A stretch of DNA of 36,161 nucleotides, taken from positions 1,740 to 37,900 of the forward strand of contig CAZGOT010000002.1 in assembly GCA_964527495.1 (NCBI GenBank), written 5' to 3'. A program made the position numbers and the translations under genes. How positions within the stretch are numbered: position 1 is the first letter of the stretch; the number at the start of each line of letters is the position of its first letter. Below are positions 3,096-36,161 of the stretch, piece by piece. The stretch comes from an uncultured Haliscomenobacter sp. Lineage in GTDB: Bacteria > Bacteroidota > Bacteroidia > Chitinophagales > Saprospiraceae. A model generated the notes under the pieces. It ran no database searches. It was not told the DNA's origin and saw nothing but the letters and a program-made list of their open reading frames with translations.

Positions 3096-3111
3096 CCCAG
3101 GGCACCCCCAC

Positions 3112-3196
3112 GGGGTTGTATAAAAAGGCCGGAGGCCGTCCTTTGGCGGCTGACGCCGCCAAATAATATTTAAACTTTGTGGGGGTGTGTAAAAAG
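3112..3196 (+). repeat. Mosaic palindromic intergenic repeat, locus 2 (A box, small hairpin, B1 hairpin, degenerate A box)
   Basis: GGGGTTGTATAAAAAG at 3112-3127; gccggaggccgtcc at 3128-3141; TTTGGCGGCtgacGCCGCCAAA at 3142-3163; GGGGGTGTGTAAAAAG at 3181-3196. Confidence 0.85.
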
Positions 3197-3255
3197 CCCC
3201 TGTGAATCCATCGCCTGGTCTTCCCGATAACCAGAAAAGAACCAAAAAATATCTC

Positions 3256-4137: not shown

Positions 4138-4155
4138 AGACTGCCGCATAAGGCA

Positions 4156-4361
4156 TTTGCCGCCATCGTAGGCGACATAATAATTTTTTTTGGAGTTGTG
4201 TGAAAAGGCTGAGGGCCATTATTTGGCGGCTGACGCCACCAAATGTTATTTTGAATGAACGACGTTTTGCCTCATTTTGCTTTGCAAAATGAGGCAAAAC
4301 GTCGTTCATTCAAAATTTTCTTTCGCCGCCGAAGGCAGCGGAATACTTTTTACACAACCCC
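4156..4361 (+). repeat. Mosaic palindromic intergenic repeat, locus 3 (B-like remnant plus one full ~170-bp A-S-B1-C-B2-A' element)
   Basis: A-like GGAGTTGTGTGAAAAG at 4192-4207. B1 TTTGGCGGCtgacGCCACCAAA at 4222-4243. C hairpin arms at 4251-4280 and 4284-4313, perfect 30 bp, extendable to 33. B2 TTTCGCCGCCgaagGCAGCGGAA at 4321-4343. A' CTTTTTACACAACCCC at 4346-4361. Confidence 0.9.
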
Positions 4362-4390
4362 AAAAAAAGAGAGCAGCCTGAAGGCTGCTC
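4362..4390 (-). terminator. Rho-independent terminator of fsa
   Basis: Stem-loop gagcagcc-tgaa-ggctgctc at 4371-4390, 43 nt past the fsa stop. On the minus strand it is followed by TCTTTTTTTG. Confidence 0.7.
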
Positions 4391-4433
4391 CCCAAAATTT
4401 GATATATAGATAACCTCTGTCCAAAAGAAATAA

Positions 4434-6465: not shown

Positions 6466-6499
6466 AACTCGTTCGTTTTTATCGTTTTTCCATTTAAAA

Positions 6500-6811
6500 T
6501 TTTGTGGGGGTATCCCGAAAGTATGGGGTTGTGTAAAAAGGCCGGAGGCCGTCCTTTGGCGGCTGACGCCGCCAATAATTATTTTGAAGAGGTTGTGTAA
6601 AAAGCCCCCGGCTTTTCATTTGGCGGCTTGCGCCGCCAAATGTTATTTTAAACAGACGTCATTTTCATTGATTTTGCTTCGCAAAATCAATGAAAATGAC
6701 GTCTGTTTAAAATAACATTTGGCGGCCGTAGGCGGCGGAATACTTTTTACACAACCCCTTCAAAACTCTCTTTCGCCGCCGAAGGCGGCGTAATACTTTC
6801 TACACAACCCC
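6500..6811 (+). repeat. Mosaic palindromic intergenic repeat, locus 4 (densest cluster: A-S-B1, a full A-S-B1-C-B-A' element, then a B2-A' unit)
   Basis: A boxes at 6525-6540 and 6591-6604. B1 at 6555-6575 and 6619-6640. Perfect palindrome arms at 6632-6677 and 6681-6726 with loop ttc. A' at 6743-6758. The B2+A' unit at 6759-6811 is nearly identical to 61-113. Confidence 0.92.
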
Positions 6812-6848
6812 ATGGTATTTTACGACAAGAATTTCCCCGCAACCAGTA

Positions 6849-7715: not shown

Positions 7716-7842
7716 AAGGATGTAATTATAACAATCTTTTTTGCCGGGCGTGAAGCGGCAGCAGGAAGACTTCTGGCTAAATACCCCCGGGGTTGGGGAA
7801 ACTGTCTCCTAAATCTTCTGGCGACGTAAGCCATCAGAAGAT

Positions 7843-7937
7843 TTTTTTTGAACGCTATTTTTGTTGCTTTTGCTTGTAAAGCCAACAAAAATAGCGTTCA
7901 AAAAAATTATTCTGCCACCGAAAGCGGCAGAACACTT
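7843..7937 (+). repeat. Mosaic palindromic intergenic repeat, locus 5 (variant C hairpin + variant B2 hairpin)
   Basis: 24-bp perfect arms at 7843-7866 and 7883-7906 (tttttttgaacgctatttttgttg / caacaaaaatagcgttcaaaaaaa) with an apex containing ttttgcttg. This is followed by TCTGCCACCgaaaGCGGCAGAA at 7911-7932. The inverse of that B2 variant is seen at 36113-36135. Confidence 0.8.
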
Positions 7938-8103
7938 ACGAGACAGCACACTCCTAATCGGACATAAACAATCAGGAAGCAGTCCTGCGGCGAAGCTCCG
8001 GGATACCCGGGTAAGCCTTTGCAGTAATTTAAACGTTTTCGCCGTTTAGTTACTGCAACGCTTACTTCAACTTATACGCTTTTTTCCAAAAAAAAGTTTC
8101 TTT

Positions 8104-14012: not shown

Positions 14013-14051
14013 AAAGGAATTGTTTTATATTTGTACTTTGTATAGAAATAG

Positions 14052-14130
14052 AAGGTTGTGTAAAAAGTTGGGGGTTGTGTGTAAAAAGTATTTCGCCTCC
14101 GAAGGCAACGAAAGGCTTTTTACATAACCT
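14052..14130 (+). repeat. Mosaic palindromic intergenic repeat, locus 6 (A box, then a mini-element A-B2-A')
   Basis: AAGGTTGTGTAAAAAG at 14052-14067; GGGGTTGTGTGTAAAAAG at 14071-14088; TTTCGCCTCCgaagGCAACGAAA at 14091-14113; CTTTTTACATAACC at 14116-14129. Confidence 0.8.
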
Positions 14131-14167
14131 CATAATTTTTTTACCCCCCGGCAAACAATGGCAACAA

Positions 14168-16744: not shown

Positions 16745-16793
16745 GCGACATGCTGAATCTGGTTTGTTTAGTACAATGTGGAGATGTATGAAA

Positions 16794-17084
16794 TTTTTTG
16801 GGGTTGTCCCAATAGTATGGGGTTGTGTAAAAAGGCCTAGGGCCGTCATTTGGCGGTTGACGCCGCCAAACAATATTTTGAACGCACACTGTTTTCATTG
16901 ATTTTGCTTCGCAAAATCAATGAAAACAGTGTGCGTTCAAAATTTCCTTTCGCCGCCGAAGGCGGCGGAACACTTTTTACACAACCCCTTTTTAATATTC
17001 TTTGGCGGCTGACGCCGCCAAATGTCATTCGTTCAAAATTTTATTTCGCCGCCGAAAGCGGCGGAATACTTTTTACACAATCCC
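16794..17084 (+). repeat. Mosaic palindromic intergenic repeat, locus 7 (pre-module, one full 170-bp element, then a core-less B1-B2-A' element)
   Basis: A at 16819-16834; B1 at 16849-16870; C arms at 16875-16907 and 16911-16943 (perfect 33 bp, loop ttc); B2 at 16948-16970; A' at 16973-16988, a perfect complement of A. Second unit: B1 at 17001-17022, B2 at 17044-17066, A' at 17069-17084. Confidence 0.92.
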
Positions 17085-17120
17085 TGAATGGCTTATGAGA
17101 TGACCCCGAACAGCAGAAAG

Positions 17121-18703: not shown

Positions 18704-18807
18704 ATTTATATTTTTTAAACGCCTTTTGAGCATTGCTTTGAAAGGGTGAAAAATGCTTCGGCCGCCAGAAAGAGATTTTGTTCCTTAACCACTAAGCCCT
18801 CTCCTAA

Positions 18808-18866
18808 GTATTTTGCCTCCTGCTGACAGCTCCCTTGGCTGGCAGGGGAACCTTTTTACACAACTT
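18808..18866 (+). repeat. Mosaic palindromic intergenic repeat, locus 8 (degenerate hairpin + A' box) between the PFOR and DHOD-like genes
   Basis: ggctggcaggggaacCTTTTTACACAACttc, with the A' box at 18852-18864. Compare gggccaggggCTTTTTACACAACtcc at 118-143. Confidence 0.7.
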
Positions 18867-18878
18867 CTATGCGCACAA

Positions 18879-24246: not shown

Positions 24247-24355
24247 CGTTTTTTACATGCGCTAAATAGTTAATGGGATAAACTTAGCGCAACCAGGACG
24301 TTTTGCCTATGATTTTCGTCACCTGAAAAGGAAAATTTATACCTCTCGCATTCAT

Positions 24356-24441
24356 ATTCCGCCACCTGCGGCGACGAAAGAAAGTTTTGAAGAGGCTGTT
24401 CGAAAAGTCTTTTGGCGGCTTGCGTCGCCAATAATTATTTT
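24356..24441 (+). repeat. Mosaic palindromic intergenic repeat, locus 9 (inverted B2 unit, degenerate A box, B1 hairpin)
   Basis: 24356-24390 attccgccacctgcggcgacgaaagaaagttttga is the reverse complement of a B2 unit. Then gaggctgttcgaaaag (degenerate A). Then TTTGGCGGCttgcGTCGCCAA at 24411-24431 followed by taattatttt, as at 6555-6585. Confidence 0.8.
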
Positions 24442-24541
24442 AGGACAGGATCCATCATAACTCCTTCCCTCAACCATTCCCTATATTTGGGGTTAAGTCA
24501 AAAATGGGTTGCCTGGGCAGCGCAGCTACTCGAAAATAGCA

Positions 24542-26440
24542 ATGAAGGAACTGAAAGAATTATTCGAACTGCAGGAACTCCTGCAACTGGAGAAAGCGGA
24601 AGACTTTGAAGCTTACAAGCGCAAAATGGAACGCCTACCGCTTCCTGCCAGGCGAAAAGAGGGCTATGCCTGGTTTCCCCTGAAAATAATCCAGAAAGGA
24701 TATGCCATTGGTGAAAGGGCTTTTGTAGTGGTGGAAAGGACTGTACTCCAGGGGGAGGCACATCAGTTCCGCCCAGGTAAATCCGTTACCCTCTTCTCCA
24801 TGGCACCACACGAGCGGAACCCCGATCGGGGCGGAGTAGTATACTTCGTGGATAAAGACCGGATGAAAATTATCCTCCAGGCCCGGGATTTTCCCGACTG
24901 GTTAGAGAATGGCCAGGTCGCTGTACAAATCGCCTTTGATGAACGCACCTACCAGGAAATGGAAAAGGCACTGAACAAGGTCATCACAGCAAAAAAAGGG
25001 CGATTGGCGGAGCTTCGGGCTATTTTTCTTGGGGAAAAGCCCGCATCCTTCTACCCTTTAGGGCCCGTTCCGGATATTCCCCGGTTGAACGATTCCCAAA
25101 AAAAAGCCGTACAGCAAATTCTCTCCGCCCAAGACCTTGCACTCGTCCATGGACCACCAGGTACGGGAAAAACAACTACGCTGGTCCAGGCAGTCCGGCT
25201 ACTTTGCCAAACGGAACAAACCGTATTAGTTACCGCTCCCAGCAATACCGCTGTAGATTTACTGACCGAACGCCTTTTTGAGGAAGGGTTAAACGTAGTG
25301 CGCGTGGGTAATATTTCCAGAGTTGAAGAAGGCCTCTTGCAACACACGCTCGATGCATTGGTCGCCCAACATCCGGAAAGCCGAAATATTCGGAAAATAA
25401 AAGTCCGGGCTGCCGAGCTCAGGCGACAAGCGCAGCGCTATCGCCGCCACTTTGGCGCAGAAGAGCGCCAGGAAAAACAAGACCTCTGGCAAGAGGCGCG
25501 CGAACTTGCTGCCTGGGCCAACCAGATGGAAGAGCGCCTGATCGAACAAATCCTCGATACCGCACAGGTCATCACCTGCACACTGGTAGGGGCTGCCCAT
25601 CCTGTACTTGAAAATCGGAAGTTCCGTACCATAGTAGTGGATGAAGCTGCACAAGCGCTCGAGCCTGCCACCTGGATTCCCATTAGTAAAGCCTCCCGTG
25701 TAGTACTCACGGGTGATCCCCACCAACTGCCCCCCACCGTGAAATCGCTGGAAGCTGCCCGTAGGGGCCTGAATATTACCCTCATGGAAAAATGCCTGCA
25801 ACAGTCCATGGAGGCAACCCTCCTGGATGTCCAGTACCGCATGCACCAGGCAATTATGGGGTTTTCCAACCAATATTTCTACCAAAACCGCCTCCAGGCC
25901 GACCCCTCCGTTGCCGCACGCAGTTTGCCCGCTGGCGACAAACGCCCCCTTCTGTTTATTGACACTGCAGGCTGTGGCTTTGAAGAACAAGTCAACCCCG
26001 CATACCAAAGCCGCTTTAACCCGGATGAGTTCCGCATCCTTTGCGAACACCTCTATTTTTTCGTAGATGCGTTTGTGGAAAAAGAATATCCTTCGGTAGC
26101 TATTATCTCTCCCTACCGGGAACAAGTGGCCTATATGCAGGAACATCTGGCAAACGATACACTGCTCCAAAAGCTCCCTATCGAAGTAAATACGATTGAT
26201 GGCTACCAGGGACAGGAAAAAGATGTGGTCTATATTTCATTGGTGCGCTCCAACTCCAAAGGGGATATTGGGTTCCTCCAGGACTTCCGCCGCATGAACG
26301 TGGCCATGACCCGGGCCAGGAAACAACTCGTGATTATAGGGGATAGCGCCACTATCTGCCGCTCCCCGTTTTATGTCGCCCTGGTGGAATATTGCGAGCA
26401 GTTCGGTGCCTGCGAAACGGCATGGGACTATATGATGTAA
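24542..26440 (+). CDS. Superfamily 1 helicase, Upf1/IGHMBP2-like (DNA2/NAM7 family)
   Basis: Walker A GPPGTGKTTT, motif II VVDEAAQ, motif III LTGDPHQLPPTV, QYRMH, motif V TIDGYQGQEKDVVYISLVRSN, motif VI RRMNVAMTRARKQLVIIGD. I prefer the ATG at 24542 (MKELKELF) over the upstream track start. Confidence 0.85.
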   Translation: MKELKELFELQELLQLEKAEDFEAYKRKMERLPLPARRKEGYAWFPLKIIQKGYAIGERAFVVVERTVLQGEAHQFRPGKSVTLFSMAPHERNPDRGGVVYFVDKDRMKIILQARDFPDWLENGQVAVQIAFDERTYQEMEKALNKVITAKKGRLAELRAIFLGEKPASFYPLGPVPDIPRLNDSQKKAVQQILSAQDLALVHGPPGTGKTTTLVQAVRLLCQTEQTVLVTAPSNTAVDLLTERLFEEGLNVVRVGNISRVEEGLLQHTLDALVAQHPESRNIRKIKVRAAELRRQAQRYRRHFGAEERQEKQDLWQEARELAAWANQMEERLIEQILDTAQVITCTLVGAAHPVLENRKFRTIVVDEAAQALEPATWIPISKASRVVLTGDPHQLPPTVKSLEAARRGLNITLMEKCLQQSMEATLLDVQYRMHQAIMGFSNQYFYQNRLQADPSVAARSLPAGDKRPLLFIDTAGCGFEEQVNPAYQSRFNPDEFRILCEHLYFFVDAFVEKEYPSVAIISPYREQVAYMQEHLANDTLLQKLPIEVNTIDGYQGQEKDVVYISLVRSNSKGDIGFLQDFRRMNVAMTRARKQLVIIGDSATICRSPFYVALVEYCEQFGACETAWDYMM

Positions 26441-26445
26441 AATGC

Positions 26446-26492
26446 AGGAAGCCTTTTTTCCTTTTGCCGGGCAAAAGGAAAAAAGGCTTCCT
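26446..26492. terminator. Long hairpin immediately after the helicase stop (terminator-like)
   Basis: aggaagccttttttccttttgcc / ggcaaaaggaaaaaaggcttcct, a perfect palindrome of about 23 bp starting 6 nt after the TAA at 26438-26440. There is no clean downstream U-tract. Confidence 0.5.
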
Positions 26493-26500
26493 ACATTTGG

Positions 26501-26646
26501 ATATTTGGCGGCTTGCGCCGCCATAGAATATTTTTTTAAAACGCTTATTTCATTGATTTTGCTTCGCAAAATCAATGAAATAAGCGTTTTAAAAAATTTT
26601 ATGGGTTCGTGTAGAAAGGACGGAGGCCGTCCTTTTTACACGAACC
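26501..26646 (+). repeat. Mosaic palindromic intergenic repeat, locus 10 (B1, C hairpin, then an A-S-A' hairpin)
   Basis: B1 TTTGGCGGCttgcGCCGCCA at 26504-26523. C arms at 26532-26562 and 26566-26596 (perfect 31 bp, loop ttc). A-like GGGTTCGTGTAGAAAG plus gacggaggccgtcc plus TTTTTACACGAACC forms a 20-bp stem (26604-26623 / 26627-26646, one G-T) that ends 5 nt from the gldN stop. Confidence 0.88.
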
Positions 26647-26651
26647 ATGGA

Positions 26652-30049: not shown

Positions 30050-30167
30050 TTTATACGGTATTTAGTGGGTTAGCAAATGAATTTGCCGATTGAAAAAATG
30101 TATTTATGCGAAAGGATATTGTGCCGGGGGCACAATATCCTTAATTTTTTTGACCAGACCAGACGGA

Positions 30168-35982: not shown

Positions 35983-36161
35983 ATTTTTGAAAAGGCTTTT
36001 TGAAAAGTCTGAGGTTGTGTAAAAAGTATTTCGGGGTTGTGTAAAAAGCCCCCGGCTTTTCATTTGGCGACTTGCGCCGCCAAATGTTATTTTAAAGAGG
36101 CTGTCGCATTAGTGTTCTGCCGCCTTCAGCGGCAGAATAAAATTTTTTCAGAGCGGCCTTT
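35983..36161 (+). repeat. Mosaic palindromic intergenic repeat, locus 11 (two A boxes, S, B1, then an inverted variant-B2 unit; truncated by the window end)
   Basis: A boxes at 36010-36025 and 36032-36047. cccccggcttttcaTTTGGCGACttgcGCCGCCAAAtgttattttaaa at 36048-36095 is almost identical to 6605-6652. TTCTGCCGCcttcaGCGGCAGAA at 36113-36135 is the inverse of the unit at 7911-7932. Confidence 0.88.

Follow-up and report, generated by a model that had tools for sequence, protein, structure and literature searches.

The stretch analysed here, referred to as the window, is 36,161 nt of a contig from an uncultured Haliscomenobacter sp. (CAZGOT010000002.1). The 36-kb window has a G+C content of 49%, and its genes are ordinary Bacteroidota chromosomal genes, including rpsO-pnp-sigma70, etfAB, a PFOR gene and the type IX secretion operon porP-gldKLMN. 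No tRNA genes were found in it. The gene map and a profile search of the window revealed no transposase gene, of the IS1182 family or otherwise, and no gene like those of REP-associated tyrosine transposases (RAYTs; REP, repetitive extragenic palindromic), in agreement with an earlier note on this DNA. The spacers carry a family of modular, nested palindromic repeats, which make up about 4.5% of the window. Units of the family are bounded by a 16 nt box (A) and its inverse (A'), enclosing hairpins named S, B1, C and B2. They are most probably short, non-coding MITEs (miniature transposable elements with inverted repeats) of an IS1182-family insertion sequence, with A and A' being the terminal inverted repeats of the parent. 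The MITE-like foldback character proposed in the earlier note is thereby supported.

The A box (GGGGTTGTGTAAAAAG) has 24 matches in the window at up to three mismatches, against 0.51 expected, and none of 100 shuffles equalled this count. The matches at 26069 and 29320 lie within genes, have three mismatches each and look like chance occurrences, and one further pair of matches overlaps, which leaves about 20 boxes, the number previously estimated by eye. The recurrence of B1 and B2 was likewise borne out, with nine copies of B1 (at 3142, 4222, 6555, 6619, 16849, 17001, 24411, 26504 and 36063) and eight distinct copies of B2, where 0.03 would be expected for each. A nucleotide profile of 12 units recovered all 11 loci listed earlier and no further convincing locus in the window. 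The statement that the repeats fill nearly every long spacer holds for spacers of at least 250 nt (six of seven, the sole repeat-free one being the rpsO-pnp leader), but only 11 of the 22 spacers of at least 100 nt are occupied. The spacer between pnp and the sigma factor gene is 388 nt long in the window, compared with 60–200 nt in relatives.

As the earlier note had observed, the repeats occur between convergent genes (4138-4433, 16745-17120 and 26441-26651), co-directional genes (3096-3201, 6466-6848, 7716-8103 and 18734-18878) and divergent genes (14013-14167 and 24247-24508). The modules themselves are uniformly oriented: all nine B1 loops, seven of the eight B2 loops and 12 of the 14 profile segments (on the + strand) point the same way, while the neighbouring genes run both ways. 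Termination alone cannot account for repeats whose orientation is constant whatever the direction of the flanking genes. The GC skew is negative along the entire window, and the uniform orientation may reflect a bias relative to replication.

The cluster at 6505-6811 shows how the modules are nested. An outer element (6525-6811, + strand), whose ends pair between 6523-6540 and 6796-6813, consists on its left side of A (6525-6540), the S hairpin (6541-6554), B1 (6555-6576) and a remnant stem base, TTTTGAA (about 6577-6588), and on its right side of the remnant TTCAAAA (about 6759-6770), B2 (6771-6793) and A' (6796-6811). Between the two remnants lies a complete inner unit of 170 nt, A-S-B1-C-B2*-A' (6589-6758, + strand; 131.7 bits with the profile, compared with 92.3 on the opposite strand). 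Its flanks are TTTTGAAGA and CCTTCAAAA, and it occupies the exact place expected for the top of the outer element's C hairpin. A degenerate A-like box (6505-6520, + strand), situated 19–20 nt upstream of A, represents a tandem duplication of the left end, an arrangement found again at 16800-16815.

Within the inner unit, the 95 nt perfect palindrome described previously (6632-6726) was confirmed: its arms (6632-6677 and 6681-6726) are 46 nt each, 100% complementary and separated by the loop TTC. It is the C hairpin, lengthened by taking in B1's right arm and B2's left arm. The only base difference within the cluster between the window and a same-species contig (L002; 99.8% identical) is at position 6724. 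The G of the window completes the 46 nt palindrome arms, and the C of L002 restores the B2 stem GCCGCC/GGCGGC. This single nucleotide polymorphism (SNP) looks like a template-switch (quasi-palindrome) mutation, and the trade of B2 stem pairing for a longer palindrome fits template-switch correction. All three full units reported earlier are present, each 170 nt long, at 4192-4361, 6589-6758 and 16819-16988 (the middle one starts at 6589, not 6591), with C-hairpin arms of 33, 46 and 35 nt, respectively.

The A box in other genomes and at the ends of an insertion sequence

The exact A-box 16-mer was scanned for in one genome per GTDB species and was present in more than 106 stretches (L numbers denote the sequences compared); the unit counts given here rest on the matches listed. 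Among these, nearly all came from Saprospiraceae, Lewinellaceae, Haliscomenobacter, Phaeodactylibacter, Cytophagales and unclassified Bacteroidota metagenome-assembled genomes (MAGs), often at contig ends, and they yielded 57 A..A' units of 41–327 nt from at least 22 species-level genomes. The interiors of the units are alike within one genome and unlike across genomes, being AT-rich and 130 nt long in some and hairpin-rich and 158–170 nt long in others, whereas the ends are conserved throughout. The smallest form is a 41 nt A-loop-A' hairpin. The box's outer G marks a sharp limit to conservation, and none is seen at positions −1 to −25 beyond it. Only 20% of A boxes lie in long stop-free stretches, though such stretches make up 84% of the DNA. 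The elements are short, non-coding, mostly intergenic and present in many copies (11 loci in the window and 57 units elsewhere), as is typical of MITEs. Plasmid sequences gave no match by BLAST, viral contigs gave only four, and a full-text literature search with the box sequences returned none.

By exact-protein look-up, only two short metagenome contigs of the same species were found, 99.8–99.95% identical to the window. Both start or stop within repeats, which is what high copy numbers would lead one to expect. A 153 nt stretch is 94% identical in L079, which represents another species-level genome. The closest relatives found by way of sigma-70 (72–84% identical in amino acids, with rpsO, pnp and the sigma gene in the same order) lack A boxes in 17–20 kb and have shorter spacers than the window; at up to 84% amino-acid identity these relatives are too distant for a base-level comparison of empty sites. 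The family is patchy in its distribution, with lineage-specific expansions, which is the behaviour of mobile DNA rather than of a conserved host signal.

A few matches are of separate interest. Two were in genomes binned as Spirochaetota, a 156 nt A..A'-like unit with three mismatches in its right box in the Leptospiraceae MAG UBA2033 (L047, 5185-5340) and a solo A' at a contig start in a Leptospira MAG (L067, 125-140); these represent either spread across phyla or mis-binned Bacteroidota contigs. A 628 nt non-coding stretch between A and a degenerate A' (L018, 2107-2734) has long internal inverted repeats and no open reading frame (ORF). Many unique, near-perfect intergenic palindromes with arms of 20–39 nt, often with A and T runs beside them, were seen in L003-L108, and would be ample targets for a structure-seeking transposase.

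The parent of the elements was found by scanning the proteins encoded just inside solo A boxes. Scaffold 2 of Arcicella aurantiaca DSM 22214 (L099) starts inside an ORF, the N-terminus of which is about 70 nt inside an exact A box. Its product matches Pfam DUF772 (E 1.6e-18) and the NCBIfam model NF033551, 'IS1182 family transposase' (143 bits, profile positions 6–151). Scaffold 46 of the same strain (L013) starts with the matching transposase C-terminus and has an exact A' 101 nt past the stop codon. The same left end recurs in L043, which is a Bernardetiaceae MAG, in L201-L204, which are four JGI contigs, and, with two mismatches, in L198. It comprises the A box, a subterminal sequence and then the protein start M-[GDE]-x-N-I-x-K-K, and when these left ends are aligned, the first G of the box is precisely where they become similar. 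The A box is the outermost conserved sequence at both ends of the insertion sequence: at the left end, it is exact (16/16) in L099, L043, L202 and L204 and has one mismatch in L201 and L203, and it is likewise outermost at the right end in L013.

A complete but more distant relative of 1760 bp (L200) has two ORFs, with DUF772 and DDE_Tnp_1_6 domains, that match NF033551 at 186 and 217 bits (profile positions 2–197 and 258–487). Its ends (GGGGCTGTCCCAAAAG) are related to the A box, it lacks a target duplication, and it is located in the palindrome AAAAATTAATTTTT (AT). The Pfam domains found in the transposase fragments are DUF772, DDE_Tnp_1 and DDE_Tnp_1_6. NF033551 matches every fragment; none alone reaches its cut-off of 270 bits, since each is partial. 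The transposase beside the A boxes belongs to the IS1182 family. The earlier note did not recognise the consensus as a named family, a view that comparison with related genomes does not bear out: in these, an IS1182-family insertion sequence has the A box as its terminal inverted repeat.

Other routes to an autonomous copy were less productive. Pairs of A and A' lying 400–8000 nt apart comprised only non-coding cases of 445 and 628 nt and a 6.7-kb pair on a viral contig, and the recurrent neighbour proteins of A boxes belonged only to large paralogue families (SDR proteins, response regulators and ECF sigma factors). The copy in the four JGI samples (L201-L204) is decayed, consisting of the A box and the first 100 transposase codons, fixed between tilS and an aldo-keto-reductase gene fragment, and is an old, immobile insertion.

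Insertion signature and rival explanations

Target-site duplications were not found in the 57 units, direct-repeat flanks being near the control level. Duplications of the TA, TNA and 5-bp types (mariner/IS630, IS5 and Tn3) were absent from the unit flanks, and these identities were rejected. Unique inverted-repeat flanks of 6–14 nt were found in 12 of the 57 units (21%), compared with 1.5% in controls in which left and right flanks were re-paired at random, and most of them abut the element ends. Same-orientation tandem duplications of the A box, with a modal spacing of 19 nt, recur in the window and in other genomes. The elements are in addition nested, intergenic and patchy among lineages. 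The signature typical of the IS1182 family, with no duplication and with palindromic or stem-loop targets, was seen in these elements, including the nested copy at 6589-6758.

The arms of hairpin C differ between copies at 22 base pairs that have changed on both sides, with almost no mismatches. Pairs of G with T are no commoner than pairs of A with C, which indicates a constraint on DNA pairing and not on RNA. We infer that what maintains the perfect Watson–Crick symmetry is either template-switch correction or selection, during transposition, for DNA that forms hairpins or cruciforms.

These properties can be brought together if the A boxes are recognised by an IS1182-family transposase supplied in trans. 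Like that of IS1272, an insertion sequence of staphylococci, such an enzyme would insert elements into DNA stem-loops or palindromes with no primary sequence specificity and no target-site duplication. The top of the target hairpin would be removed, and the bottom of its stem would stay as a unique inverted repeat beside the new element. Intergenic terminator hairpins and resident copies would be the preferred landing sites, and nested modular palindromes would build up over many rounds in which elements insert, replace hairpins, lose internal sequence and duplicate their left ends in tandem. Each element is itself a long hairpin, in which an A:A' stem closes S, B1, C and B2, which would make it a target for the next insertion and lead to nesting. 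Hairpin-targeted insertion free of duplications, as in the IS1182 family, would account for the nested palindromes. We infer further that the transposase acts on these particular copies, with IS1272-like insertion chemistry.

A bolder version, which we offer tentatively and do not favour, is a self-targeting system: the transposase would recognise the structure of DNA and not its sequence, each inserted hairpin would make the next landing site, and nested arrays would accrete at a few spacers. If this were so, then only copies that extrude as perfect DNA hairpins would keep transposing, which would explain both the Watson–Crick-only covariation of arms of up to 46 nt and the conservation of identical 16-bp ends, around exchangeable interiors, in several bacterial families. 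The genomes would then be a natural record of structure-dependent transposition, so far inferred from few staphylococcal insertions, and A. aurantiaca DSM 22214 would provide a culturable test host.

Several observations weigh against the elements being IS1182-derived MITEs moved in this way. No IS1182-family transposase was found in the window or in about 690 kb of A-box loci from Saprospirales-type genomes, and the autonomous copies that were found sit in Cytophagales and unassigned metagenome contigs. The two ends of the Arcicella insertion sequence are on separate scaffolds, so that two exact A boxes were never read on one full-length copy. The window and the two same-species contigs carry the same insertions, with no presence/absence polymorphism. 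Hairpin targeting was demonstrated for IS1272 in staphylococci, which are another lineage, and contiguous inverted-repeat flanks could also come from outward extension of a palindrome. The orientation bias of the modules is not predicted by a DDE mechanism.

That bias would suit a strand-specific process, such as one in which a domesticated Y1 (HUH) transposase of the RAYT or 'TIRYT' kind moves REP- or REPIN-type hairpins on single-stranded DNA, as with proteobacterial REP/BIME elements. The intergenic, GC-rich hairpins B1 and B2 have the look of REP sequences, occurring as singlets, doublets and clusters with no target duplication. Bacteroidetes RAYT subclasses have atypical flanking structures that include long nested hairpins (PMC6006769), RAYT-like genes bounded by terminal inverted repeats are on record (PMC3733652), and one Y1_Tnp gene was found 1.1 kb from an A-box unit (L019). 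This explanation is nevertheless highly improbable. The likeness to REP, BIME (bacterial interspersed mosaic element) and REPIN sequences drawn in the earlier note breaks down at the A box, which is not self-complementary and has no conserved unpaired foot; GTAG, CGTC and GGGGWSAS do not fit. It is tied directly to a DDE-type IS1182 transposase, and in other genomes the orientation of the units relative to GC skew is mixed. No Y1 tnpA or RAYT gene bounded by the repeats was found in the sampled loci. In 1.7 Mb of A-box loci, a pattern search for the HUH and Y motifs gave no matches, and phmmer, queried with the sequence of an IS200 TnpA, detected the L019 gene only. This gene has no flanking A boxes, it lies in a conserved SET-Y1-ssrA synteny, and its orthologues (L193-L197; 76–88% identity) have no A box within 5–10 kb. 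Its product was rejected as the mobilising enzyme on the basis of the conserved synteny and the A-box-free orthologues, in a comparison of sampled loci rather than whole genomes.

The Y1_Tnp protein of L019 (2986-3447) and L193-L197 is itself of note. It is 153 aa long with the motif YIKNQEQHH, as in 'subclass 1.2' of PMC6006769, and its gene lies in the order SET-domain / Y1 / tmRNA-like region / AlaDh. More than 1000 homologues of near-constant length occur across Bacteroidota, many on contigs of about 1 kb, and the protein looks domesticated.

If the repeats were instead bidirectional terminators, mRNA-stabilising hairpins or sites for host proteins, then function and not mobility would have conserved them. 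Modules B1, B2 and C do supply the top terminator-like matches in the window, the shape of a minimal A-S-A' element is that of an A-run, GC hairpin and T-run, some copies are just downstream of genes (such as the minus-strand hairpin at 7908-7934 after pnp), and the stems covary strongly. Against this, the T-rich tails trail the hairpins on the + strand almost everywhere, independently of gene direction, and divergent promoter spacers are filled with elements too. No such elements are present in close relatives that share the gene order, and the covariation, being Watson–Crick only, speaks for DNA rather than RNA pairing. A match in Rfam, which the earlier note had proposed looking for, was not obtained: the window and seven loci gave none at the gathering score, and a permissive search returned only generic long hairpins of the plant-miRNA type, far below threshold. 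Selection by the host is an unlikely origin, and individual copies may have been co-opted. Integron attC-like core sites and dif-like sites were rejected, as their sequences do not fit.

There is a better, though still less than even, chance that the repeats are relics that no longer transpose and are at present shaped solely by replication template switching and by recombination between copies, which would make palindromes longer and more perfect and would shuffle modules. The window has no transposase, the three same-species sequences show no insertion polymorphism, and decayed copies are seen at 7789-7937 and 18808-18867. Hairpin arms are perfect despite the divergence of copies, the flanking inverted repeats mostly abut element ends, and the sole SNP in the cluster (6724) lengthens the palindrome to 46 nt arms. 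On the other side, MAG contig breaks at the repeats imply many near-identical and hence recent copies, and the 153 nt stretch shared with L079 also argues against relics. This explanation addresses present activity rather than origin, and is compatible with derivation of the elements from an IS1182-family insertion sequence.

The remaining loci of the window

The complete unit at 4192-4361 (A-S-B1-C-B2-A', + strand, 130.8 bits) lies between convergent genes and has T8 and A7 flanks. That at 16819-16988 (+ strand) gave the profile score of 134.4 bits, and as single-stranded DNA it folds into an A:A' stem that closes the S, B1, C and B2 hairpins (−72.4 kcal/mol, z −15.5). It is followed directly by a deletion derivative on the same strand, composed of B1, a C remnant, B2 and A' (16989-17084).

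The other loci hold partial or rearranged units, on the + strand unless stated. The leftmost (58-143) reads TTCAAAA-B2-A', then a small hairpin and a second A', which on the minus strand appears as a tandem A-A with a distance of 30 nt. A copy consisting of A-S-B1 and a second A-like box (3112-3199) occupies the entire spacer between cmk and PNP_UDP. The copy at 7789-7937 is decayed (38.3 bits) and retains a C-type hairpin with 17 nt arms, another that resembles B2, and a degenerate A'; the minus strand shows a T run after the B2 hairpin, downstream of pnp. The divergent spacer copy at 14052-14131 has the order A, TTG, A (with a 2 nt insertion), B2-like hairpin and A'. The weakest of the 11 loci (18808-18867, E 0.13) is a remnant hairpin with an A' of two mismatches. 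In the copy at 26501-26647, B1 and C (35 nt arms) are followed by a minimal A-S-A' hairpin element (26604-26646), which takes the usual place of B2. On the left, this locus is adjoined by a unique near-perfect palindrome (26440-26498; 29 nt arms, 1 nt loop) that starts at the last base of a helicase stop codon. This palindrome may serve the convergent gene pair as its native bidirectional terminator, and may also be the type of hairpin targeted by the elements.

A second type of box, GAGGCTGTTCGAAAAG and its variants, has six matches in the window where 0.57 would be expected. Those at 24392-24407, 35992-36007, 36097-36112 and 16800-16815 adjoin A boxes. The first is part of a group of head-to-head fragments of no overall orientation (24355-24442), in which a reversed B2 precedes the second-type box GAGGCTGTTCGAAAAG and B1 follows it. 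The locus at 35983-36161 (+ strand), which reaches the window end, runs from a second-type box through a tandem A-A (spaced by 22 nt), S and B1 to a further second-type box and a reversed B2-like hairpin. The second-type box resembles the ends of the L200 element, and this sequence likeness suggests a second, related MITE lineage. Apart from the repeats, the gldK/gldL spacer contains a perfect 14-bp hairpin with a T run after it (30112-30142, + strand), opposite to the direction of the operon.

Comparison with known systems

In a comparison with literature text, Rfam and plasmids that did not extend to ISfinder or Dfam, the repeats emerged as a MITE family, not described before, of a Bacteroidota insertion sequence of the IS1182 type. 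The family is not a new kind of system, nor is it an analogue of REP/RAYT. Its description names an abundant, unannotated repeat that inflates spacers and interrupts, in hundreds of places, the metagenome assemblies of Saprospiraceae, Lewinellaceae, Haliscomenobacter and Cytophagales, explaining the fragmented assemblies in these lineages. It also provides a large natural data set for structure-targeted transposition, together with a cultured strain carrying the autonomous element for experiments.

The resemblance to REP, BIME and REPIN sequences lies in the intergenic palindromic units, the singlets, doublets and mosaic clusters, and the retention of complementary stems. The elements described here differ in having no GTAG/CGTC foot and non-palindromic end boxes, in flanking no Y1 gene, and in sharing their ends with a DDE-type IS1182 element. 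Closer are bacterial MITEs such as Correia/NEMIS, RUP, ERIC, Nezha and MITECca01, which likewise lie between genes, are short and non-coding, take their ends from a parent insertion sequence, fold into strong hairpins and expand in copy number in particular lineages (PMC3733652, PMC9769881); MITECca01 of Cardinium derives from an IS982 element (PMC9769881). Classical MITEs have target duplications (for example, TA) and one conserved interior, whereas the A-box elements have no duplication, the same 16-bp ends enclose unrelated interiors across genomes, and the copies are nested palindromes.

The closest counterpart is IS1272, a member of the IS1182 family in staphylococci, which has 16-bp terminal repeats and makes no target duplication. 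Its targets are stem-loops, often terminators, of unrelated sequence and with terminal repeats of 5–17 bp; insertion deletes part of the hairpin, the remaining stem flanks the element, and a variant carries a 25-bp tandem duplication of its left end (PMC5678879, PMC4923244). A review cited in both of these papers states that some IS1182 members target palindromes. IS1272 and its derivatives TnSha1 and TnSha2 share with the elements described here the 16-bp ends, the lack of duplication, the stem-loop targets and the tandem duplication of the left end. Their transposase, like that of L200, is sometimes split into two ORFs (PMC5678879, PMC4923244), and the transposases adjoining A boxes match the NCBIfam model of IS1182, the family of IS1272. 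Unlike IS1272, the window elements are non-coding, 41–330 nt long, very dense, found in Bacteroidota, built of internal hairpin modules and inserted into one another; IS1272-type insertion chemistry would apply to them by analogy. On this analogy, duplication-free, hairpin-targeted transposition of the IS1182 type, known from a few cases in staphylococci, would also operate in Bacteroidota and on elements that are non-autonomous, and the window would show what hairpin targeting produces when the element is itself a hairpin, namely nested modular palindromes that resemble REP/BIME mosaics.

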